A stretch of 64,000 nucleotides of DNA from Acidobacteriota bacterium (GCA_027459505.1 DAIDIE010000001.1:26318-90317); one strand, 5' to 3'. Positions 10,641-47,784 are shown, counted from the stretch's first letter. A program made the numbers and translations. The notes: a model not told the origin generated them from the sequence alone.

Positions 10641-11981
10641 CTATTGTTCCCAGGCGTCGCGGCGCGCGTCGATCAGCCGCCGCAGCTTGCGTCCCGTGCT
10701 CAACGTGCGGGGCGCGTGATAGTGAAAGTCGAACTCAAAAAATCGCTTCTGGTAATAGCGCCAGCAATCCGGAAACCGCTCCTCGATATTGCGGAAAATA
10801 TGCTCCCGCACCTCGTCGGCGCCCGCCTCGGGCCGCAGTTCGAGATGAAACTCGATGCGATCGTCGCGGTCCCCCCGCCGCACGATCACCTGCCAGTCGT
10901 CCGTCACATCGTGGATGTCACGCAGGATCTCCTCGAACCAGTAGGGGCTGATGTTGCCCATTGAGCAATTGATGAGCTCGTCGGAACGGCCCGCGATACG
11001 CGCCACCCGCGGCATCAACTGCAAGCCGCATTGGCATTGCCCGTCTTGCGCCCAACGTGTTACATCCGCGGAGCGGTAGCGGATCAGCGGCATCACCTGG
11101 CGATTGAGCGTGGTGTAGGTGAGTTCGCCATAACCATCCTCATCGGGATCGGCGATCTCATTGACCAGATTCAGATCGTCGAGGTGATATCCGTGCTTTT
11201 CCGGGCACTCGATTCCGTTGGCCCCGAAGGCTTCCGTCTGCCCATAACTCAGCACCACCCGCGCCCCTTTCCAGACCGATTCGATGTAGCGCCGCGTCCG
11301 CTCGCTCAGGTTCTCTCCACCCAGCAAAAGCAGTTTTACCGGCCAGATCCCCTCTTTTTCCGCAACCTCGGTGACGCGAACAATATGTGTTGGCACGCCC
11401 ATAATCACCGTCGGGCGGTACACTTTCACGCGCTCGTAAAACTCCTTGGGCTCCACAAAGGCGCCGATCACGTGCAGGCAGCGCAGCGGAATCAGCGCGT
11501 AGTAGGCGGTGAACGGCGCGTTCCAGAAGGAATAGTCGAACCCGTCCGCTACCACATCCTCGCGGCGTACTCCCAGGTTATACAGTCCCGCCGCCGAATC
11601 GCGGCCATAATGCTGCATTTCCGCATAGGAGAAATAAACCCGCTTATTCACCCCCATCGAAGTGCCGGTCGTTTCAAAACCAAACTCCGGTGGCGCGCAT
11701 AAGAAGTCCTCCACCGGGTTGTTGCGCAGATCGGCCGCCGTCGTAAAAAAGTTCCCCAGGTCGGCGTGACTGTACACCTTGCGCGGATCGATGCCGAATT
11801 CCTTGAACTTCCGCTGATAAAACCGCGAATGCTTGGCCGCGTAGCGCACCGTGCGGTTCATCCCCTGCCGCTGTAAGCGGCGGATCAGCCCGGGTGTCAG
11901 GCGCTGGCCAAAGCGCAAGCGCCGCCCCGGCTGGTTCAACAGCCGTTCGTCAACAAACTTGATGAGGCGATGGATTGCCAT
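10641..11981 (-). CDS. PaaK / coenzyme F390 synthetase-like adenylate-forming enzyme
   Basis: ...FFTTAADLR..., FETTGTSMGVNKRVYFS, ...LLLGGENLSE..., ...LSYGQTEAFG... match the phenylacetate-CoA ligase-like family. ATG 11981 (GAGGAA upstream) is preferred over TTG 11999. Confidence 0.8.
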   Translation of the reverse strand: MAIHRLIKFVDERLLNQPGRRLRFGQRLTPGLIRRLQRQGMNRTVRYAAKHSRFYQRKFKEFGIDPRKVYSHADLGNFFTTAADLRNNPVEDFLCAPPEFGFETTGTSMGVNKRVYFSYAEMQHYGRDSAAGLYNLGVRREDVVADGFDYSFWNAPFTAYYALIPLRCLHVIGAFVEPKEFYERVKVYRPTVIMGVPTHIVRVTEVAEKEGIWPVKLLLLGGENLSERTRRYIESVWKGARVVLSYGQTEAFGANGIECPEKHGYHLDDLNLVNEIADPDEDGYGELTYTTLNRQVMPLIRYRSADVTRWAQDGQCQCGLQLMPRVARIAGRSDELINCSMGNISPYWFEEILRDIHDVTDDWQVIVRRGDRDDRIEFHLELRPEAGADEVREHIFRNIEERFPDCWRYYQKRFFEFDFHYHAPRTLSTGRKLRRLIDARRDAWEQ

Positions 11982-12064
11982 ACGTAACCGGTTCCTCAAC
12001 AGGGCTTCCGCCCCGCCTCTCGCTTCCCTCGCGTCGCTTCCTCCGCACGCCCTCCCCGCCGTGC

Positions 12065-13303
12065 TCAGCGCCCGGCCGCATTGCGCAGAATCAGCGACGA
12101 ATTCTGTCCCCCAAATCCAAATCCGTTACTCATTGCCACCCCGATGTGCGCCGCGCGCGCCTCTCCCGCCACCACATTCAGCAAACAGTCGGGGTCGGGA
12201 GTGCTGTAGTTCAGCGTTGGTGGAATAAAACTCTCCCGCATTGCCAACACCGTCAACACCGCCTCCACCGCCGAGGCGGCGGCGATCAGATGTCCGGTCA
12301 TGGCTTTGGTTGAACTCACCGGAACCCGCGCCGCGGCATCGCCCCACACCCGGCGCAAAGCTGCCGCCTCCGCCTGGTCGTTCAATACCGTGCCCGTGCC
12401 GTGCGCGTTGATGTAGTCGATCTCGCCCGGCCTCAGCCCGGCATCGTGCAAGGCCGCACCAATGGCCTGCGCCGCACCCCGCCCCTGCGGATGACACTTG
12501 GTCAGCCCAAAACAGTCCAACGAGCTGCCATAACCCGCCAGTTGCGCCAGCGGCCGCGCGCCCCGCGCTTCCGCGTGCCCCGCCTCTTCCAGCACGAAGG
12601 CGGCGGCTCCTTCGCCAACCACGAAACCGGTGCGATGACGGTCAAAGGGCCTGCAGGCCCGTTCCGGCCCTTCGTGCGCCAGCGCCGAAAGCAGTTCAAA
12701 TTCCAGCAAACTCAGCGGATCAATCTGGCTGTCGGTGGCGCCGGCAATGACCACCTCCGCCTGCCCCCGTTCAATAATGCGTTTGGCCATTCCCAACGCA
12801 TCGTTCCCAGAAGCGCAGGCGGTATAGCAGGAGTAGCGTGCGCCTCCAACCCCCGCCCGCTGCGCTAAGCCGCTCAGCAACTGCTGGGGCCGGGGGCGCT
12901 CCTCCGCGTTCACATACGCCTCCTGCGCGCGCGCCATCTGCTCCTCGATGACATCAGTCCCCCGCACGCCTGCCACCACCCGGCCCAGCATCTGCAGGTC
13001 CGTGGGGGGCTTGCCCACCGCCCACACCAGGGCGCGATCCTGCGCGGCATCCGCCGCCGGCAGTTGCGCCTCACTCAACGCCTCTTCCAGAACCTGCCGC
13101 GCCAGCGCTGCCATGCGCGGATTGCCACTGGGAAAGACGGCATCGGTAATTTCACCTGCGATCCGCACCGGAAAACCATCCACCGGAAACTGGCGTATCG
13201 CGCCAATGCCGTTGTGTCCCCGGCGCATCCGCTCGGCCGTTTGCCGCTGCCCCACTCCCAGCGCGGAAACCACACCCATTCCGGTAATGACCGCTCGCCT
13301 CAT
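12065..13303 (-). CDS. Beta-ketoacyl-ACP synthase (FabF/KS-alpha type, catalytic triad intact)
   Basis: MRRAVITGMGVVSALG..., active-site Cys in YTACASGNDALG, His in INAHGTGTVLND and KAMTGHLIAAAS, and C-terminal GFGFGGQNSSLIL. ATG 13303 overlaps the upstream stop (ATGA at 13300-13303). Confidence 0.9.
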   Translation of the reverse strand: MRRAVITGMGVVSALGVGQRQTAERMRRGHNGIGAIRQFPVDGFPVRIAGEITDAVFPSGNPRMAALARQVLEEALSEAQLPAADAAQDRALVWAVGKPPTDLQMLGRVVAGVRGTDVIEEQMARAQEAYVNAEERPRPQQLLSGLAQRAGVGGARYSCYTACASGNDALGMAKRIIERGQAEVVIAGATDSQIDPLSLLEFELLSALAHEGPERACRPFDRHRTGFVVGEGAAAFVLEEAGHAEARGARPLAQLAGYGSSLDCFGLTKCHPQGRGAAQAIGAALHDAGLRPGEIDYINAHGTGTVLNDQAEAAALRRVWGDAAARVPVSSTKAMTGHLIAAASAVEAVLTVLAMRESFIPPTLNYSTPDPDCLLNVVAGEARAAHIGVAMSNGFGFGGQNSSLILRNAAGR

Positions 13304-30281: not shown

Positions 30282-32894
30282 ATGCCAACAAGTCAGACCA
30301 AGCCGGTAGCCACCGAACTTGCGGTGACGGGAATGACCTGCGCCTCCTGCGTCGCACGTGTGGAGAAGACGCTGAAGCGCCTGCCCGGCGTTGAAGACGC
30401 CGCCGTCAATCTCGCCACCAATAAAGCCTCCATCCGTTTCCACCCTGAACAGATCCGGCTGCGGCAACTGGTCGACGCCGTGCGCGAGATCGGCTACGAC
30501 GCGCCCCTCACCACCAGCACTTTTCAGGTCAGTGGCTTGGAAATGACCCAGGACCCACAACCGCTGCAGCGCGCCGTCGCCAGCCTTCCCGGCGTCGCCT
30601 CAGCGCAGCTCAATTTGGCCAGTGGCGAACTCCGCGTCGAGCACACCGGCAACCTGAGGTCCGAGATCATCCGGATAGTCGAGCAGCGCGGCTTTCAGGT
30701 AGCGGAGCGCGGTGCCCCGGAGACTGACCCCGCGGCCCACGAACACGCCCATGACTACGCCGATGCCGAGACCAGCCGCCTGCGCACGCGCTTTTGGGTG
30801 GCGCTGGCCGCCAGCGCCGTCGTGATGTTCTTCTCCATGCTGCTGCAGGCCTCCCTGCCCCGCATGGCGGGCGCAACGCTTTCCGATCCGCTGATGAAGT
30901 GGATGTCGCCGCTCAGCCACGCCTTGCTGCAGGCCTTGGGCGGCGCCCCCCTCTGGACGCCCGGCCTGCTGCGCTGGCTCCTCCTGCTGCTCACACTCCC
31001 GGTCGTCGGTTGGGCGGGACGGCATTTCTATGTCCGCGCCTGGAAGGCCTTCCGTCACCACGCCGCGGATATGAACACCCTCATCGCCGTGGGAACCGCC
31101 GCCGCTTTTCTCTTCTCCCTGATCTCTACCCTGGCGCCCACGCTGTTCACTCATCACGGCCTGGCCGCGGACGTCTACTACGAAGCCGTTGACTGGATCA
31201 TTGCCCTGATCCTGCTCGGCAACTGGATGGAGAGCCGCGCCCGCCGCCAGACCGCCGGCGCCATCCGCTCCCTCATCAAACTGCAAAGCCGCACCGCGCA
31301 CCTGCTGCGCGACGGCCAGGAATCTGAAGTTCCCGTCGACGCGCTGCAACCCGGCGACCTGGTCCGCATCCGCCCCGGGGAACGCATTCCCGCCGACGGC
31401 CTCGTCCGTGAAGGCGCCAGCAGCGTCGATGAAAGCATGCTTACCGGCGAATCCATGCCGGTCGAAAAGCAGCCCGGCGCCGAGCTCATAGGCGGCACCG
31501 TGAACGGCAACGGCGGACTCGTCGCCGAGCTGCGCCGCGTCGGAGAGCAAACCACCCTGGCGCAGATTGTGCGCCTGGTGGAACAAGCGCAGGGCTCCAA
31601 GGCCCCCGTCCAGCGCCTCGCCGACCGCGTCGCCGGCGTCTTCGTCCCGGTGGTCATCTCCCTTGCCATTGCCACCTTCGCCATCTGGTTTGATTTCGGT
31701 CCCTCGCCCCACCTGCTCTGGGCCTTTCTCACCGGCGTCACCGTGCTCGTCATTGCCTGCCCCTGCGCCATGGGACTGGCCGTACCCACTGCGGTGATGG
31801 TGGGCACCGGACAGGGCGCACGCCAGGGTGTGCTGATCCGCGGCGGAGAAGCACTGGAAAAATTGCAGGCGGTGCGCACCATCGTGCTCGATAAAACGGG
31901 AACCATCACCGCCGGACGCCCCGAAGTTACGGACCTGCTGCCCACGCAGGCATCCAGCGAGCCCGAACTGCTCGCCACCGCCGCCTCTCTCGAAGCGCAC
32001 TCCGAACATCCCCTGGGGCAAGCGATTGTCCGCGCCGCACAGAGCCGCGGGTTGCCCCTTGCGGAAATCGACGGCTTCACCGCCATTCCCGGCAAGGGCA
32101 TTCATGGCCAAAGCCGCGGTACCGCTGAGACATTGCTGGTGGGCAGTGACGCCTACATCGCCTCAGCATTTCCGGAAGCCTCCAACGCCCGCACGGCCGC
32201 AGCCACGACCCTTGCGCAGTGGGCCAGCCAGGGCAAAACAATCGTCGGCGCGGCTCGCGGAACACGCTTGCTCGGCTGGTTGGCCGTTGCCGACCCGATT
32301 AAGCCCGGCTCCGCCGATGCCATCCGGAGTCTGCGCCACCTCGGCCTGCGCCTCGTAATGCTCACCGGCGATGCGCCCGCCACCGCGCAGGCCATTGCCT
32401 CCCAGTTGGGCATTGAGGAAGTGCGCGCGGGCGTGCTGCCGGCCGGCAAAGCTGACGAGGTGCGCCGCTTGCAGCAACAGGGGCTCAGCGTTGCCATGGT
32501 TGGTGATGGCATAAACGATGCCCCCGCCCTCGCGCAGGCCGATGTGGGCGTCGCCATTGGCACCGGCACTGATGTCGCCATGGAAGCCAGCGACGTCACC
32601 CTGGTACGCGGCGATTTGCGTGCCCTGCTGCGCGCCATCCTGCTCTCGCGCCGGACCATGCGGATCATCCGCCAAAACCTGTTTTGGGCCTTCGGATACA
32701 ACGTGATCGGCATCCCCATTGCCGCCGGCCTGTTGTATCCCGCCTTTCACATTTTGCTGTCCCCAGTACTGGCCAGTGCGGCCATGGCTTTCAGTTCGGT
32801 AAGCGTGGTCAGCAACAGCCTGCGCCTGCGCCACACCGGGGGTGATGAGCGGTTTGCCGGCCAAAGCCAACTCCGCGCCAGGACAACCGCCTAG
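30282..32894 (+). CDS. copA: Copper-translocating P1B-type ATPase
   Basis: HMA with GMTCASCV, a second HMA-like repeat lacking CxxC, TGES (LTGESMPV), CPC (ACPCAMGLA), DKTGT, and GDGINDAP. Confidence 0.95.

Positions 32895-39969: not shown

Positions 39970-39973
<4 letters not shown>
39509..39973 (-). CDS. Secreted carboxypeptidase-regulatory-like domain protein
   Basis: Signal peptide (AAAMLLLPLGVVAAGA), then AEIYGTVFNPDGFGVAGAQVSVRL...ANAIGEFV. The start overlaps the upstream stop (39970-39973). Confidence 0.6.
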
Positions 39974-40389
<416 letters not shown>

Positions 40390-40728
40390 TCTCGTCCTTA
40401 CCTTATTCCGGTCCTGGTGGGGACGCTTGCTCGCGGCCCTAAAAAATTCTAGCCGAGAACGACCAACCCTACCGGCCCTGAGTATTGTTCCGCGCCGTGG
40501 CGCTGACAGGAAGATGCCAACCCCCGACAGGCCAGTTGTACTTGGCCAATCCCGCTTCAGAATAGCCGCACTCAACAACCGTCTGCCGACTGCGCTGCCG
40601 GGGCCTCGGTAACGGGCACCTCCTCACCCCGCCTGTTTGGGGGTAGTCTGAAAGTGTCCACTGGGACTCTAACCCGCCTCGGGTGCACCGCCCTGGGAGA
40701 AGCCTCCAGTTAAGCAAGGAGCAAACCG

Positions 40729-42701: not shown

Positions 42702-43075
42702 GCGCTGGACTTCTTCCCCAGCCGCCAGCCGCGGCCCCATTCATACGCCGTTACGTGCAGCAATCCCCCCATGATGGCAATGTTCTTCAAAACCTCCATC
42801 TGTTGAAAGCCCGGCGCGATGTGCCCGTAATAGGTGGCGCCCACCAGATAAATGGCCATAATCAAGGCCACCAGCCCCGCCCGCAAGCCAATAATCAGCA
42901 GGATGCCGCCAACCAGCTCGACCACGATGGCAATCACCGTGGCCAGCCCTGGCGCGGGCATATGGCTGTGCGCGAAGTAACCGGCGGTACCGTGGAAGCT
43001 CCGCAGCTTGTTGAAGCCGCTCAGAACGAAAATCAGGGCCAGCAGGACGCGTGAAAAAATCACCAATGGACGCAC
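42698..43075 (-). CDS. DoxX family membrane protein
   Basis: 125 aa with four hydrophobic helices; RVLLALIFVLSGFNKL is typical of DoxX. The stop overlaps the convergent NUDIX stop by 4 nt. Confidence 0.8.
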   Translation of the reverse strand: MRPLVIFSRVLLALIFVLSGFNKLRSFHGTAGYFAHSHMPAPGLATVIAIVVELVGGILLIIGLRAGLVALIMAIYLVGATYYGHIAPGFQQMEVLKNIAIMGGLLHVTAYEWGRGWRLGKKSSA

Positions 43076-43316
43076 GGCGGTCCTCCCTAAAACAAAGGCT
43101 TACAGGCGAGCCTCGCCGCCGAAAGAACCTTACCGGTTCCTCCCGGCCCCGAAGCTGCCACTTTGGATGCAAACCACACACCAAACGTTGGCACCACTGT
43201 TGCCTGCGATCCAGCACTCGCTTGAACACCCGGAAACCGCCCCATGATCCCATCTACTGCGGCCGACGCCCCCCGCCCGAGTCATGCGCGACACCCAACC
43301 AGCCGCAACGCCCTGC

Positions 43317-43347
43317 GGACAACTTCAACCGGTAACTGACAACCGCC
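43317..43347. repeat. Short copy of repeat family E3
   Basis: GGACAACTTCAACCGGTAACTGACAACCGCC with the same left flank as the 39455 copy. Confidence 0.55.
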
Positions 43348-43485
43348 ACCCGACCACTGCCCCACGCCCATGGCATCGCCGGCGCGCAGAATCCGCCGCA
43401 CGCCTCATGCGATTGGGAGTCCGTTGTATCCCAAACATGGCAAAGCACTTGTATTGAATGGAGGAGGCGGTCGGAGGGGGGTGTT

Positions 43486-43562
43486 TGGTAGCGCCAGCGG
43501 GATTCGAACCCGCGATCTTCGCCTTGAGAGGGCGACGTCCTGGGCCGCTAGACGATGGCGCC
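43486..43562 (-). tRNA. tRNA-Glu: tRNA-Glu (anticodon CUC), CCA encoded
   Basis: The reverse complement folds as a cloverleaf. Acceptor GGCGCCA/TGGCGCT. D-arm GTCT-AGCGGCCCA-GGAC. Anticodon arm TCGCC-CTCTCAA-GGCGA. T-arm GCGGG-TTCGAAT-CCCGC. Discriminator A plus CCA. The TCGTCTAG..GGCCCAGGAC region is characteristic of bacterial tRNA-Glu. Confidence 0.9.
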
Positions 43563-43661
43563 ACGCCCGTGGAGTGCTCTACTAGAGTACCAAAGCCCCC
43601 AGCAACTGCCAAACCGCGCGGCTCCGAGCCATTCGCAGCAAGGCTGGCGCGAACTGACCTC

Positions 43662-44936
43662 TCACGCAATCACCGGCAGCGCCATGGCATAACTAATCTT
43701 CAGCTTCGCCTGTGCCGTGCGCAGCGCCTGCTCCACCTCCGCCGGCGTCTCCGCGTGGGCAAAGATAAAGCCCAGATACGTTCCCCCTTCCGGCAGCGGC
43801 CGTAGCATCTGTTTCGGCTTTGCCGTGATCAGCACCTCTTCCACCCCAGGCACCTCGCGCGCCCGCTCCACCCCGCTCACCTTCTGCAGCAGTCCCCCAC
43901 TGCCAATGGGAAGCATGAACACACCTCGTGCGCCGCTAAAGTGCAACTGCGCCGGTGCGAATACCTCCGGCAGCAAACGCTGGATCAGCAGCCGCTCCAG
44001 TCCCGGCAGCGTCCGCGCGCACAGCCCGCCTATCGGCCGCGGCGCGGTCTCCAGCACATACGCCCGGCCGCCGCTCCATCGCACCTCGGCGTGCACCGGC
44101 CCATGCGCCAGTCCGCTGGCGCCCAGCGACGCGCGCACCGCCTGCTCGATCAGCTTCTGATCGCGTTGCGGCAGCCGCGATGGCGTAACGTAAATCGTCT
44201 CCTCAAAAAACGGCCCGTCCAGCGGATCGGGTTTGTCGTAGAGCGCCAGCGTCTCCAGCCGCCCTTCCCGCACGAACCCTTCCAGCACAAACTCCGGCCC
44301 GGGAAGGAAGTCCTCCACCAGAATGGTCTCCGCCGCGCTCGCGCCAGTTGACCGGATGGCCGGCTCCAGCAGAAGCTCGCGCGTGCGCTGAAACGCGGTG
44401 ATGAACTCCGCCGGATTGTTGGAGCGGATCACACCACGGCTGCCCGACAGATGCAGCGGCTTGCTGACCACCGGATAGTGCAGTCCCGCCGCCGTCCGCG
44501 CCAACTCCGCCGCGCTGATCTGCAGCGGCAGCAGGCGGTGCGCCGGCGCCGGCAAGCGCGCCGCCAGGTGCGCCATCCGCATCAGGTTCTTCCGCGTGCA
44601 AACCTGAACCGCCTCGGGCGTGGCGCCTCGCACGCCCAACCCGCGCGCCAGTTCGGCCGCGGTCAACGCCGCCCGGTCATCCAGCGCCAGCACCGCCGTA
44701 TTCTCCGCTCGGATGTCGCTCCACCGCCGGCGCAACGCCTCCAGCACCGGGGCCTGCGAGCCGGCCTCTTCAAACCGCACCGCCAGCGCCTGGTCTCCCC
44801 AGGGATCGTCCAGGTGCGAGCAGCGGTCCGAGACCAGGGCGCAGTCCACGCCCAGGCTAGCCGCCGCTTCGCGAAACGCCTGCGCCTGGTACCCCAGCTT
44901 GTTGGTCACCAGCACGAGTTGGGCTTTGCTCTCCAT
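43662..44936 (-). CDS. ATP-grasp enzyme (L-amino-acid-ligase / carnosine-synthase-like architecture)
   Basis: ATG 44936 (MESKAQLVLVTNKLG) lies 5 nt after the extended radical SAM stop. Motifs YPVVSKPLHLSGSRGV, ILVEDFLPGPEFVLEG and GPVHAEVRW...YVLETAPRPIGG are ATP-grasp hallmarks. The track start GTG 44993 is rejected. Confidence 0.8.
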   Translation of the reverse strand: MESKAQLVLVTNKLGYQAQAFREAAASLGVDCALVSDRCSHLDDPWGDQALAVRFEEAGSQAPVLEALRRRWSDIRAENTAVLALDDRAALTAAELARGLGVRGATPEAVQVCTRKNLMRMAHLAARLPAPAHRLLPLQISAAELARTAAGLHYPVVSKPLHLSGSRGVIRSNNPAEFITAFQRTRELLLEPAIRSTGASAAETILVEDFLPGPEFVLEGFVREGRLETLALYDKPDPLDGPFFEETIYVTPSRLPQRDQKLIEQAVRASLGASGLAHGPVHAEVRWSGGRAYVLETAPRPIGGLCARTLPGLERLLIQRLLPEVFAPAQLHFSGARGVFMLPIGSGGLLQKVSGVERAREVPGVEEVLITAKPKQMLRPLPEGGTYLGFIFAHAETPAEVEQALRTAQAKLKISYAMALPVIA

Positions 44937-44941
44937 GACGC

Positions 44942-46426
44942 TCAAATCAGACGGGCAAACTGCTCGTCGGTAGGCTCGCTTCAACAGAACCACGGCTCAT
45001 TTAAATACGGAATCGTCGCCCGCGCGGGCAGCACCACACCCGCCGCCGCGGCCAGTGGGGCGGCTTGCTGGTCTTCTTCGGCCTCGGCCGGAGTCTCAGC
45101 TACAGACTCCACCGCCCGCGTCAGGTTTCGCACCGCCGCAAAAATTCTTTCCCGCGTGGCCGCCACGCTGTTGGCCACCGCCGTCCCCGGCGCCGTCGCC
45201 GTTTGCACCAGTTCCTGCACCCGCAGGCACAGCTCATCAACCCTCGAGTCGGTGTGCCGCCATTCGTAGCTCAACTGCCGCGCGTTGAACTCGCCCAGCC
45301 AGCCCTCTTCCCGTCCCAGTTCCAATAGCCCGGAACCCTCGGGCAGCAATAGCCGCACCGCCAATTGAATGGGCGCCACCTGCGCTTCCAGCTCCAGCCG
45401 CTGCAACGCGTCGAGCATGCGCTGGTAGCTTTCCAGGCTGGTCCAGGGCGTGAAGGCGACCAGGGTCGGGTTCAGCGCTATCCCGTGCCGCCGCACCAAT
45501 TCCACCGCGCGCTCCACGTCCGCGCGCGTGTGCCGCTTTTGCAGCCGTTCCAGTACAGTATCGTCAAACGACTCCACCGCGCTGGTAATCAGCGCACATC
45601 CCGTGGCCTGCAATTCCGGCAGCAGCTCCGCATGTTGCAGCAGGTGCTCGACCTTTATAGTCGCGTCATAGGTGACTTCCGGAAACCGCGCATGCAGCCC
45701 TCGCACCACGCGCAACGCATGCGTGGGCCCATTCAGAAAATCAGGATCGCCGAAGGTGATGTGCTGCGCGCCCGCCTCGACCTGCTGCGCAATGTCGGCC
45801 AGCACCACCTCCGGCGCCACCACCCGGAACTGTCCCTGGTACACCGGAACGATGGGGCAGTGCCGGCAGTGGTGCTTGCAGCCACGGCTGGCCTCCGTGT
45901 AACCCACCAGCTTAGCCGCTCGCCCCTCCTGCTCCAGTTGTGCATAGCGGGAGAGAGGCGGTAATCCCACCCGTTCGGGTGGCACAAACGCCAGCCGCGG
46001 CACGCTCTGCCCTGCCTCAGCCGCCTCGCGCTCGCCCTCCACCCGGCCGTCACGCAGCGCCACCGCCAGCCGGCATAGCTCTTCTTCAAATTCCCCGCCG
46101 AGAACGCTGGCAAAGCCGTGCGCGCGCAAGAAGCGCGCATTCAGCGGCGCGTACAATCCATAGGCCGCCAGGTGCGCGGACCCGTTGAGTTCTTTCAACC
46201 GCGGCGCCAATTGCATGGCCAAGCGCGTCGCCGTGTGCATCGGCAGGTGGATGGCGATCAGGTCGGCCCCCCTCACCGCTTCCATCACCTGCGTTTCGTT
46301 CAGCGGCTGGCGCGAAAGATCAAACACCTCTACCGCGATCCCTGCGCGCCGTAGCCACGCCGCCGGCGAGGCCAGCCCAAAGGGCTGCCGTCCCATCTCG
46401 TAGGTGGCCATCAAAACAGCACGCAT
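44942..46426 (-). CDS. B12-binding-domain-like radical SAM protein, predicted selenoprotein (TGA 44981-44983 read as Sec; tail ...EPWFC-U-SEPTDEQFARLI)
   Basis: Radical SAM cluster motif SRGCKHHCRHCPIV (CX3CX2C). N-terminal MRAVLMATYEMGRQPFGLASPAAWLRRAG...DLIAIHLPMHTA region. An in-frame TGA directly after Cys is followed by 12 sense codons and a second TGA at 44942-44944. There is a hairpin 12 nt downstream of the first TGA. See findings. Confidence 0.7.
44950..44983 (-). other. Candidate Sec codon (44981-44983) plus SECIS-like hairpin (44950-44968)
   Basis: mRNA: UGA AGCGAGCCUACC GACG(A)GCA-GUU-UGC(C)CGUC. It has 7 base pairs with one A/C mismatch and G and U in the apical loop. The stem starts 12 nt after the UGA. 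Confidence 0.5.
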
Positions 46427-46587
46427 ATTTCGATCATAAAACGTGCGCAACGCTCCCGGGAATTTACACACCCTGCTGGCCGTCAATCCCGCGCCGGATC
46501 AGGTACGATTAAGTACGCATCACGTCCACGACGATGGAGACGAACCCGGGCTTCGGCCACGCCGCCGAGGTAGTGTATTTTCCCCGC

Positions 46588-47784
46588 ATGGCCCCCAACT
46601 TTGAACGCAGACTGTTTGACCTGATCGAGAGCGTCTCGCGCGCCGAGCGCGACGGCTCGTTCTCCAACGCGCTGGCCGACAGCATCATGCGCGAATTCGG
46701 CCCCAGCCTCAAACTGCGCTCGGTGGCCATCTTCCGTCCGCAAGGCCTGCGCTACGAACCTACCTACTGCGCCGGCGAGCCGCTCTGGGATGTCGTGGAT
46801 GGCTCCCTGTCCACGCGCACCGTGCAGCGCCGTTTGCAGGGACAACTGTGGTGGGTGCAGCGCGGCCTCAAACGCGTCACCCCGCAACAGACCGAGTGGT
46901 TCGACCTCATCCTCATCCCCGTCGCCCGCAACCTGCAGTTCATCATCGGTCTGCTCACCAACTCGCTGGCCGGCGATGAGGGCGAGGAGCGCGAAACCAC
47001 TTTCCACGTCATGGGCCAGTTGATCCGGCTCTTTGTCGATCGCCACCACCAGCGCCAGCGCCTGCAGGAGATTCTCACCCTCGCCCGCCAGCAACAGCTC
47101 AGCCTCCTGCAGCCGGAGTTGCCGCGCATTCCCGGCTTCCAGGTCGCGGGTGTATCGCTCCCCAATCAGGAAGTGGGAGGCGATTACTTCCAGGTCATCA
47201 AGCTGGCCCCGGATTTGTTCGCGCTGGCGCTGGCCGACGCCAAAGGCAAGGGCTTTGAAGCCGCCGTGCAGGTTACCGGCCTGCATGCCGGGCTGCGCGT
47301 GGTCAGCGAAACCCCCTTCAAGGTCTCCCACAAAGTGGGCCTGCTCAACCGCAGCCTCGCCCAGGGCGATGAAATGCGCAACCTGGTCTCGCTGTTCTAC
47401 GCCGAACTCGACACCCAGGGACGCCTGCTTTACGTCAACTGCTCGCACCCGCCGCCGTTCGTGGTTCGCGCCGGCGGTGTCATTGAAGAACTACCCGACG
47501 GTGGCATGTTCCTCGGCCTCAGCCCCGACAGCATTTACCGCATCGGCATCTTCGAGCTGCGCCCTGGCGACGTGCTGGTCGTCTACTCCGACGGCTGGAG
47601 CGAGTTGTTCAACGATCAGGGCGAGGAGTTCGGCGCCGACCGCTTACGCGAAACGCTGCGCCAGGTGCACCGCTGGGAACCCCAGGCCGTCATCGACCTC
47701 ATCCAGGCCAGTTGCGACCAGTTCCGCGGCGAAGCTCCTTACCAGGACGACCGTACGCTGCTGGTGCTCAAACGCGATGGATAG
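46588..47784 (+). CDS. PP2C/SpoIIE-family serine phosphatase with N-terminal GAF-like sensor region
   Basis: C-terminal half has GGDYFQV, ALADAKGKGFEAA, VYSDGWSE and QDDRTLLVLKR. Start ATG 46588 is preferred. Confidence 0.8.
   Translation: MAPNFERRLFDLIESVSRAERDGSFSNALADSIMREFGPSLKLRSVAIFRPQGLRYEPTYCAGEPLWDVVDGSLSTRTVQRRLQGQLWWVQRGLKRVTPQQTEWFDLILIPVARNLQFIIGLLTNSLAGDEGEERETTFHVMGQLIRLFVDRHHQRQRLQEILTLARQQQLSLLQPELPRIPGFQVAGVSLPNQEVGGDYFQVIKLAPDLFALALADAKGKGFEAAVQVTGLHAGLRVVSETPFKVSHKVGLLNRSLAQGDEMRNLVSLFYAELDTQGRLLYVNCSHPPPFVVRAGGVIEELPDGGMFLGLSPDSIYRIGIFELRPGDVLVVYSDGWSELFNDQGEEFGADRLRETLRQVHRWEPQAVIDLIQASCDQFRGEAPYQDDRTLLVLKRDG

Follow-up and report, generated by a model that had tools for sequence, protein, structure and literature searches.

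A radical SAM selenoprotein paired with an L-amino-acid-ligase-type enzyme across bacterial phyla, and a possible ArsL-like pathway

Results

A conserved radical SAM and ligase gene pair

We analysed a 64,000-nucleotide stretch of DNA from an Acidobacteriota bacterium (GCA_027459505.1, DAIDIE010000001.1:26318-90317; hereafter the window), in which a gene for a radical S-adenosylmethionine (SAM) protein with a predicted C-terminal cysteine-selenocysteine (Cys-Sec) pair is followed by a gene for an ATP-grasp ligase. We show that the two genes form a co-transcribed cassette of a selenoprotein of the NCBIfam family NF040546 and a ligase of the L-amino-acid ligase (LAL) type, and that this cassette is conserved across phyla. 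The two genes are probably also translationally coupled. The unit is real and is widely conserved in soil bacteria; its undescribed pathway is most readily understood as a variant of the kind represented by ArsL, the closest characterised relative of the radical SAM protein. The features on which this argument is built are the following.

44942..46426, minus strand: radical SAM selenoprotein open reading frame (ORF), 494 aa including Sec at residue 482, translated across the UGA
44981..44983, minus strand: UGA predicted to be read as Sec (Cys481-Sec482), from codon comparison across loci
44950..44968, minus strand: hairpin GACG(A)GCA-GUU-UGC(C)CGUC, resembling a selenocysteine insertion sequence (SECIS), 16-34 nt past the U of the UGA
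43662..44936, minus strand: LAL-type ATP-grasp enzyme, 424 aa, from Pfam and PDB matches

One protein search scored at least 8,000 sequence clusters as relatives of the radical SAM protein, and among the matches listed in a genome scan at least 574 of 600 candidate stretches encoded a relative. The nearest protein relatives are only ~55% identical to the window protein. Homologues of the ligase likewise run to thousands, as many as for the radical SAM protein, under generic names such as "biotin carboxylase" and "ATP-grasp domain-containing protein". We took 80 genome loci from the genome scan and a further 80 metagenome loci anchored on the ligase, giving about 160 neighbourhoods in all. The ligase gene comes next, on the same strand, after the radical SAM gene in 52 of the 67 genome loci that have at least 1.6 kb of sequence downstream of the latter, and of the 56 metagenome loci in which 1.5 kb or more precedes the ligase gene, 49 have a radical SAM gene with it. 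In the window the ligase begins (ATG 44936) 5 nt past the read-through stop of the radical SAM ORF, and in other loci the gap is often below 70 nt. With homologues of each protein numbering in the thousands and the same arrangement found again in unrelated genomes, chance does not explain the pairing.

These results uphold a reading made earlier from the window sequence alone (hereafter the sequence-only reading), which had described a tightly coupled pair with a 424-aa ATP-grasp enzyme 5 nt after the radical SAM gene, had suggested asking whether the pair is conserved across phyla, and had noticed no precursor peptide, transporter or regulator in the unit. We likewise found no transporter, regulator or precursor-like ORF in the operon, and no conserved small ORF there. 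Fusion of the two proteins by way of the long, 25-residue tails of some homologues was ruled out, as the ORFs are never fused across the loci.

Selenocysteine at the in-frame UGA

The radical SAM ORF starts at ATG 46426 (MRAVLMATYEMGRQPFGLASP), a start that is backed by homologues, with an upstream TTG at 46486 disfavoured. Its first stop codon is a TGA at 44981-44983, which follows the residues ...IPYLNEPWFC, so that the portion to that TGA occupies 44984-46426 on the minus strand. Past this codon the frame stays open for 12 more codons, SEPTDEQFARLI, and closes with another TGA at 44942-44944; the C-terminal tail of the window protein reads ...EPWFC-U-SEPTDEQFARLI.

Nearly all of the best 120 protein relatives end at ...EPW[YF]C in their database entries; two among them, the Cys-form homologues P0017 and P0114, read CCAEPT.... 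At the nucleotide level, the codon after the tail Cys is TGA in 64 and TGC or TGT in 10 of 74 genome loci, and TGA in 34 and TGC or TGT in 29 metagenome loci, which sums to 98 loci with TGA and 39 with a Cys codon, the frame being kept downstream. The peptide after the UGA is in frame and conserved across loci (AEPT..Q..), with mostly 11, 18 or 25 residues after Sec. In the window copy Ser replaces the Ala after Sec (CUSEP), and the remainder of the tail, E-P included, is kept.

A hairpin is found at the same offset in Sec-form loci (n = 66), with an apex of AGUU or AGGUN and stems that vary yet remain complementary (for example GGGACC/GGUCCC, CAGAGC/GCUCUG and AAGAGC/GCUCUU). The mean folding energy was -11.2 kcal/mol for the 66 Sec forms versus -6.5 kcal/mol for 12 Cys forms (Mann-Whitney p = 2e-5). 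When 91 nt of the window spanning the UGA were folded as a single sequence, the z-score of 0.49 was not significant; the hairpin is visible only by cross-locus comparison.

We considered the alternative that the UGA is a plain stop at Cys481, with the similarity downstream of it a coincidence or a relic, or that the two genes simply happen to be adjacent. Automatic gene calls and most database entries do end the protein at Cys, the local fold is not significant, and a scan of 43000-47000 against Rfam returned no SECIS family, the tRNA described below being the only match there. The window hairpin is also imperfect: it has a folding energy of -7.7 kcal/mol and one A.C mismatch, as in the relative L031, and this mismatch counts against Sec insertion. 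The sole tRNA of the 64-kb window is a tRNA-Glu, and no sel gene lies among the ORFs scanned there. A plain stop does not account for the alternation of TGA with TGC or TGT at the exact codon, for the frame and peptide conserved after the TGA in 98 loci, or for a hairpin that is present in Sec forms and largely missing in Cys forms; in addition, NCBI curates the family as selenoproteins and the synteny holds in both directions. We therefore regard a plain stop or mere adjacency as extremely improbable. Because of the alternation of TGA with Cys codons, the conserved downstream frame and the hairpin in Sec forms, we conclude from sequence comparison that Sec is inserted at residue 482, as the sequence-only reading had supposed in proposing a Cys-Sec tail.

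One family member with an in-frame TGA (ESWFC*AEP) comes from a cultured organism with a complete genome, Thermomicrobium roseum DSM 5159 (megaplasmid NC_011961.1, 796591-798027). RefSeq ends this protein at the Cys, and its gene neighbours encode a pyridoxal-phosphate-dependent aminotransferase and a major facilitator superfamily (MFS) transporter, not a ligase.

The radical SAM protein belongs to NF040546 and is related to ArsL

The window protein scored 610.2 bits (E = 2e-183, cut-off 500) against NF040546, the "CUAEP/CCAEP-tail radical SAM (seleno)protein" model, with U entered as C in the query and the match covering model positions 2-467 of 468. The second-ranked NCBIfam model, ArsL (NF040542), gave 281.3 bits against a cut-off of 450. 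By these scores the window protein is a member of NF040546, a curated but uncharacterised family. The sequence-only reading could not map the pair to a described system; the radical SAM protein does map to this family, with ArsL as its closest characterised relative. According to a preprint by Haft, the structure and function of the CUAEP family are not well known, and CU motifs are rare and concentrated in proteins that handle heavy metals.

Pfam identified a Radical_SAM domain (PF04055, E = 7e-13), and the CKHHCRHC cluster motif pointed out from the sequence is indeed the CxxxCxxC motif, at C183/C187/C190, invariant in an alignment of 122 NF040546 members. The N-terminal domain is of the Rossmann type and B12-binding-like, with a match to PF02310 that falls below the cut-off (26.2 bits vs a gathering score of 32.1). 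Pfam gave no SPASM match, and models of maturases of ribosomally synthesised and post-translationally modified peptides (RiPPs) scored far under their cut-offs (TIGR03975, 27.8 vs 281.85 bits). The sequence-only reading had suggested a small-molecule or peptide-modifying pathway. The first half of this suggestion agrees with the amino-acid chemistry considered below, and peptide modification is less likely because the protein lacks SPASM, the operon lacks a precursor ORF and the RiPP-maturase scores are so low.

We aligned 122 CUAEP members with 5 ArsL-family proteins using MAFFT. The window protein is 35% identical over 415 aa to a Bacillus protein with an RCCLKC tail, and 49 positions are invariant in both families. 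The two families share a two-domain architecture and the CxxxCxxC motif, and in both a short C-terminal tail carries two adjacent residues that are Cys-Cys or Cys-Sec. In the alignment Cys481-Sec482 falls on the leading Cys pair of the ArsL RCCLKC, and the third ArsL Cys falls on Pro. The tails differ in that the window family has W-[YF]-C-U-[AS]-E-P followed by 11-30 more residues, whereas RCCLKC stands at the very end of ArsL. Cys277, invariant in the 122 CUAEP members and V or L in the ArsL family, is found only in the former, just as the third tail Cys is found only in ArsL. Two further positions set the window copy apart from its own family: Cys stands at position 34 in 84% of members and at position 87 in 92%, and the window copy has Val and Ala there, respectively.

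Published work describes ArsL as cleaving SAM to 5'-methylthioadenosine and a 3-amino-3-carboxypropyl (ACP) radical, which it joins to arsenite in the biosynthesis of the arsenic antibiotic arsinothricin; its Cys-rich C-terminal tail binds arsenite and is essential for activity. ArsL is the only radical SAM enzyme of canonical fold known from that work to combine an ACP radical with formation of a carbon-metalloid bond. Our search of the PDB found no ArsL structure.

An AlphaFold2 (AF2) model of the window protein combines a core of high confidence (pTM 0.84) with a tail that is predicted to be disordered from residue 445 (pLDDT < 50). The solved folds nearest to this model are AprD4 (18% identity), followed by TsrM, OxsB and MgmA. 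TsrM and OxsB, which rank after AprD4, are cobalamin enzymes; the AprD4 domain equivalent to the B12-binding-like one is not known to bind cobalamin.

The fold comparison bears on an alternative chemistry, in which a canonical 5'-deoxyadenosyl radical abstracts hydrogen from a small molecule or amino acid, the Cys-Sec tail does not hold the substrate but serves as a mobile redox or hydrogen-donor arm, comparable to the GCUG tail of mammalian thioredoxin reductase, and the ligase conjugates the rearranged or reduced product. The canonical CxxxCxxC motif, the class-B-like architecture and a nearest fold that is a cobalamin-free 5'-deoxyadenosyl enzyme would all suit such a reaction, as would the established ability of selenols to donate hydrogen atoms and electrons, the predicted disorder of the tail, which may allow a swinging arm, and neighbourhoods in which metal and metalloid genes do not recur. 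AprD4, however, is just 18% identical to the window protein, and the closest characterised homologue, ArsL, with 35% identity and the vicinal Cys pair aligned, performs non-canonical SAM cleavage and binds its substrate through the tail. Weighing these points, we consider a 5'-deoxyadenosyl reaction unlikely.

The ligase is of the L-amino-acid ligase type

The ligase matched ATP-grasp_4 (PF13535; 92.6 bits, 2.5e-26) and LAL_C2 (PF18603; 67.1 bits, 1.7e-18) in Pfam. Its best PDB match is the L-amino-acid ligase BL00235 (3VOT; E = 5e-24, residues 81-417), with BacD next, and its motifs align with BL00235 along the whole length. Housekeeping ATP-grasp models in NCBIfam were far below cut-off (Ddl, 17.7 vs ~245 bits; carbamoyl-phosphate synthase (CPS)-like, 25 vs 316), and no PurK/PurT or RimK match was found there. 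Every named NCBIfam ligase model stayed well under its cut-off, with BacD and DdaF as weak sub-threshold matches. The window enzyme thus has the same ATP-grasp_4 and LAL_C2 architecture as BL00235, BacD and DdaF, at low identity. On these profile matches, the ligase is of the LAL type and outside the housekeeping clades, and hidden Markov model assignment agrees on this point with what the sequence-only reading had suggested from motif layout.

ArsL-family genes are themselves found with ligases of this type. All five plasmid loci that we inspected have the ArsL-family gene within an arsenic (ars) island, and an LAL-type ATP-grasp gene accompanies it in islands on plasmids of Pantoea, Alicyclobacillus, Bacillus and Priestia, often with MFS and ArsM genes (loci L087, NZ_CP134727.1 81113-85856; L169, NC_013206.1 28853-38372; L082; and L170). 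The Pantoea agglomerans island reads ArsR | rSAM-hyp-ATP-grasp-MFS-ArsM-CobW-aquaporin | GNAT, where rSAM is the radical SAM gene and hyp a hypothetical one; the other islands with both genes are from Alicyclobacillus acidocaldarius, Bacillus cereus and Priestia megaterium. The canonical arsQ-arsL-arsM genes of Pseudomonas are without such a ligase. We rejected common descent of the window pair with the ArsL-ligase pair, since the island ligases are ~25% identical to the window ligase and other plasmid ATP-grasps ~30%. At such identity the parallel is therefore one of convergence, the pairing having arisen more than once, and repeated independent pairing argues for a functional reason, namely that the amino-acid product of such radical SAM enzymes is the substrate of the ligase. 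The islands themselves suggest peptide-conjugated products of the arsinothricin type. A literature search returned no report linking arsinothricin with an ATP-grasp ligase.

These islands raise the possibility that the window pair belongs to a true arsenic pathway, in which an enzyme isofunctional with ArsL converts arsenite into hydroxyarsinothricin and the ligase produces a peptide of the arsinothricin type. The sister relationship to ArsL, the occurrence of LAL-type ligases in ArsL islands and the binding of As(III) by thiol or selenol triads are consistent with this. The gene context is different: ArsL occurs with an ars operon (ArsM, ArsQ, ArsN1), whereas no ArsM, ArsQ, ArsN1, ArsR or ACR3 gene is present in the window and none recurs in the ~160 related loci, unlike the five of five ArsL plasmid loci in islands. 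Together with a score well below the ArsL cut-off and the absence of an RCCLKC tail, this makes a dedicated arsenic pathway very improbable.

A proposed two-step pathway

From the relation to ArsL and the nature of the ligase, we propose tentatively, and at somewhat under an even chance, an ArsL-like transfer of ACP to a soft heteroatom held by the Cys-Sec pair, perhaps together with Cys277, and then ligation of the resulting amino acid at the expense of ATP. In this scheme, the [4Fe-4S] cluster of the radical SAM protein would cleave the C-gamma-S bond of SAM to give an ACP radical, as in its sister ArsL. The flexible C-terminal arm would bring Cys481-Sec482 to the active site, where Cys277 may provide a third ligand, and would hold a soft heteroatom X, which could be a metalloid or chalcogen (As(III), Sb(III), Se or Te) or a thiophilic metal. 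Reaction of the ACP radical with X would form a carbon-heteroatom bond and release a non-proteinogenic L-2-amino-4-(X)-butanoate, which the ligase could then join, with ATP, to a partner amino acid or amine to give a dipeptide-like product. The ligation step is supported by the known LALs BacD and DdaF, which couple unusual warhead amino acids to partners in this manner. In loci that have the usual convergent gene, its product YggX, an Fe2+ trafficking protein, may shield the oxygen-labile cluster.

The arm assigned to the radical SAM protein has counterparts in other systems with a vicinal Cys-Sec pair on a flexible terminal segment, such as thioredoxin reductase (GCUG) and the selenoprotein forms of a MerB-like SAO protein, HgcA and MerT. 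The CU motif is tied to the handling of soft metals; the folds and reactions of these systems are unrelated to those of the window enzyme.

Several observations weigh against the proposed pathway. The score against the ArsL model is well under its cut-off (281 vs 450) and the tail is different, and NF040546 is uncharacterised, so that a SAM-cleavage site shared with ArsL is a matter of analogy. The ArsL-island ligases, as noted above, are only distantly similar to the window ligase. The pairing is also incomplete, as 15 of the 67 radical SAM loci have no adjoining ligase, some having a DUF169 gene instead, and a few loci with ligase and YggX genes have no adjoining radical SAM gene. Across the ~160 neighbourhoods there are no recurrent arsenic, selenium or metal-resistance genes, and none for export or self-resistance. 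An antibiotic or a plain arsenic pathway is disfavoured by the housekeeping setting and by the lack of ars, mer, exporter and resistance genes; a physiological metabolite would suit this context better than an antibiotic would.

The same context and wide distribution could be read in favour of a modification akin to diphthamide, in which ACP is placed on a protein residue, an RNA residue or a base, and the ATP-grasp enzyme amidates or extends its carboxylate, as Dph6 acts after Dph2 in archaea and eukaryotes. Radical ACP transfer from SAM followed by ATP-dependent amide formation is an established design in diphthamide synthesis, and the lack of exporter and resistance genes would be expected of it. 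The likeness is one of reaction order, as Dph2 is not a PF04055 protein, Dph6 is not an ATP-grasp enzyme, their target is a protein, and neither is homologous to the window enzymes. The window ligase has LAL_C2 and matches free-amino-acid ligases over its full length, not protein ligases of the RimK, LysX or TTL type; the surroundings hold no conserved gene for a candidate target, conservation does not extend to the neighbouring tRNA, and such a modification gives the vicinal Cys-Sec tail no role. We consider it quite improbable.

Returning to ACP transfer onto a heteroatom held by the arm, the broadest form of the proposal is a pathway of soil bacteria, present in hundreds of species, mainly of Acidobacteriota and also of Chloroflexota, Methylomirabilota, Latescibacterota and others, in which a Cys-Sec arm and radical ACP transfer yield an organo-metalloid or organo-chalcogen amino acid that is ligated into a small peptide. 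Stated with this much detail, the proposal is somewhat unlikely. If it is true, carbon-heteroatom bonds would be formed in the manner of ArsL by a second and far more widespread system, located outside arsenic resistance islands. The nearest sister family of ArsL is much larger than ArsL itself and uses Sec. As this family is tied to an amino-acid ligase and usually to YggX, and as ArsL has also been paired repeatedly with such ligases, an orphan selenoprotein becomes part of a testable two-step pathway. A product that holds As, Sb, Se, Te or a metal would bear on the cycling of metalloids in soil and on new glutamate-analogue natural products.

Neighbouring genes and window context

Two further features flank the pair in the window.

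43486..43562, minus strand: tRNA-Glu(CUC), from ARAGORN and Rfam (64.9 bits), 99 nt past the ligase stop
46534..47784, plus strand: SpoIIE/PP2C phosphatase, divergent, from Pfam (SpoIIE, 2.8e-35)

Both had been noted in the sequence-only reading, and both are incidental. The tRNA lies 99 nt downstream as described, and we rejected it as a conserved partner because no tRNA stands beside the pair in the 80 related genome loci. The divergent gene had been called a GAF-PP2C phosphatase; its SpoIIE/PP2C domain is confirmed, Pfam detects no GAF domain in its product at E <= 0.01, and it was rejected as a partner because tblastn gave no match to it in the 80 related loci.

The usual third neighbour, which the sequence-only reading did not list, is yggX (PF04362). 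Of 71 metagenome loci, 65 have this gene after that of the ligase; it occurs in 43 of 80 genome loci, and its orientation relative to the ligase gene is usually convergent. It stays with the ligase even where the radical SAM gene is missing (L084 and L085); the 316-aa protein that replaces the radical SAM protein upstream of the ligase in these two loci has no Pfam match and no radical SAM similarity, and was set aside as a counterpart. Searches of the window for YggX and for DUF169 found neither. The place of YggX (43000-43660) is taken by the tRNA-Glu(CUC) and a DoxX gene, and the window copy has lost its usual YggX neighbour.

DUF169 (PF02596) is encoded between or beside the two genes in 9 of 80 genome loci (L002, L009, L012, L020 at 11710-12438, L030, L036, L052, L064 and L065). 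The gene sits between the radical SAM and ligase genes, or after the radical SAM gene where the ligase is missing, and its product may be an alternative or additional partner. The literature on DUF169 offers weak hints, placing it near HgcA-like genes of Nitrospina and in a co-occurrence list with YedE. Other neighbours, named by eye from sequence, were rejected as parts of the unit as they look lineage-specific (at most 20 of 80 loci): aconitase, a LigD domain, glucokinase, glucose-6-phosphate dehydrogenase, a POT peptide permease and an SSS transporter.

The wider context in the window is one of housekeeping genes, encoding RuvB, HPPK, a deoxynucleoside kinase, PanB, a NUDIX protein, DoxX and an M20 peptidase. 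Two other genes of the window deserve mention. A heavy-metal P-type ATPase with an N-terminal HMA domain is encoded at 30282-32894 on the plus strand, 11 kb from the pair, and we found no link between them. The other, at 39970-40278 on the minus strand (ORF listed as 39970-40578), has no LysX-type ATP-grasp or LysZ/LysY-type enzyme among the nearby ORFs scanned; it encodes a LysW-like zinc-ribbon protein (PF21344) that ends in ~55 near-pure Asp/Glu residues.

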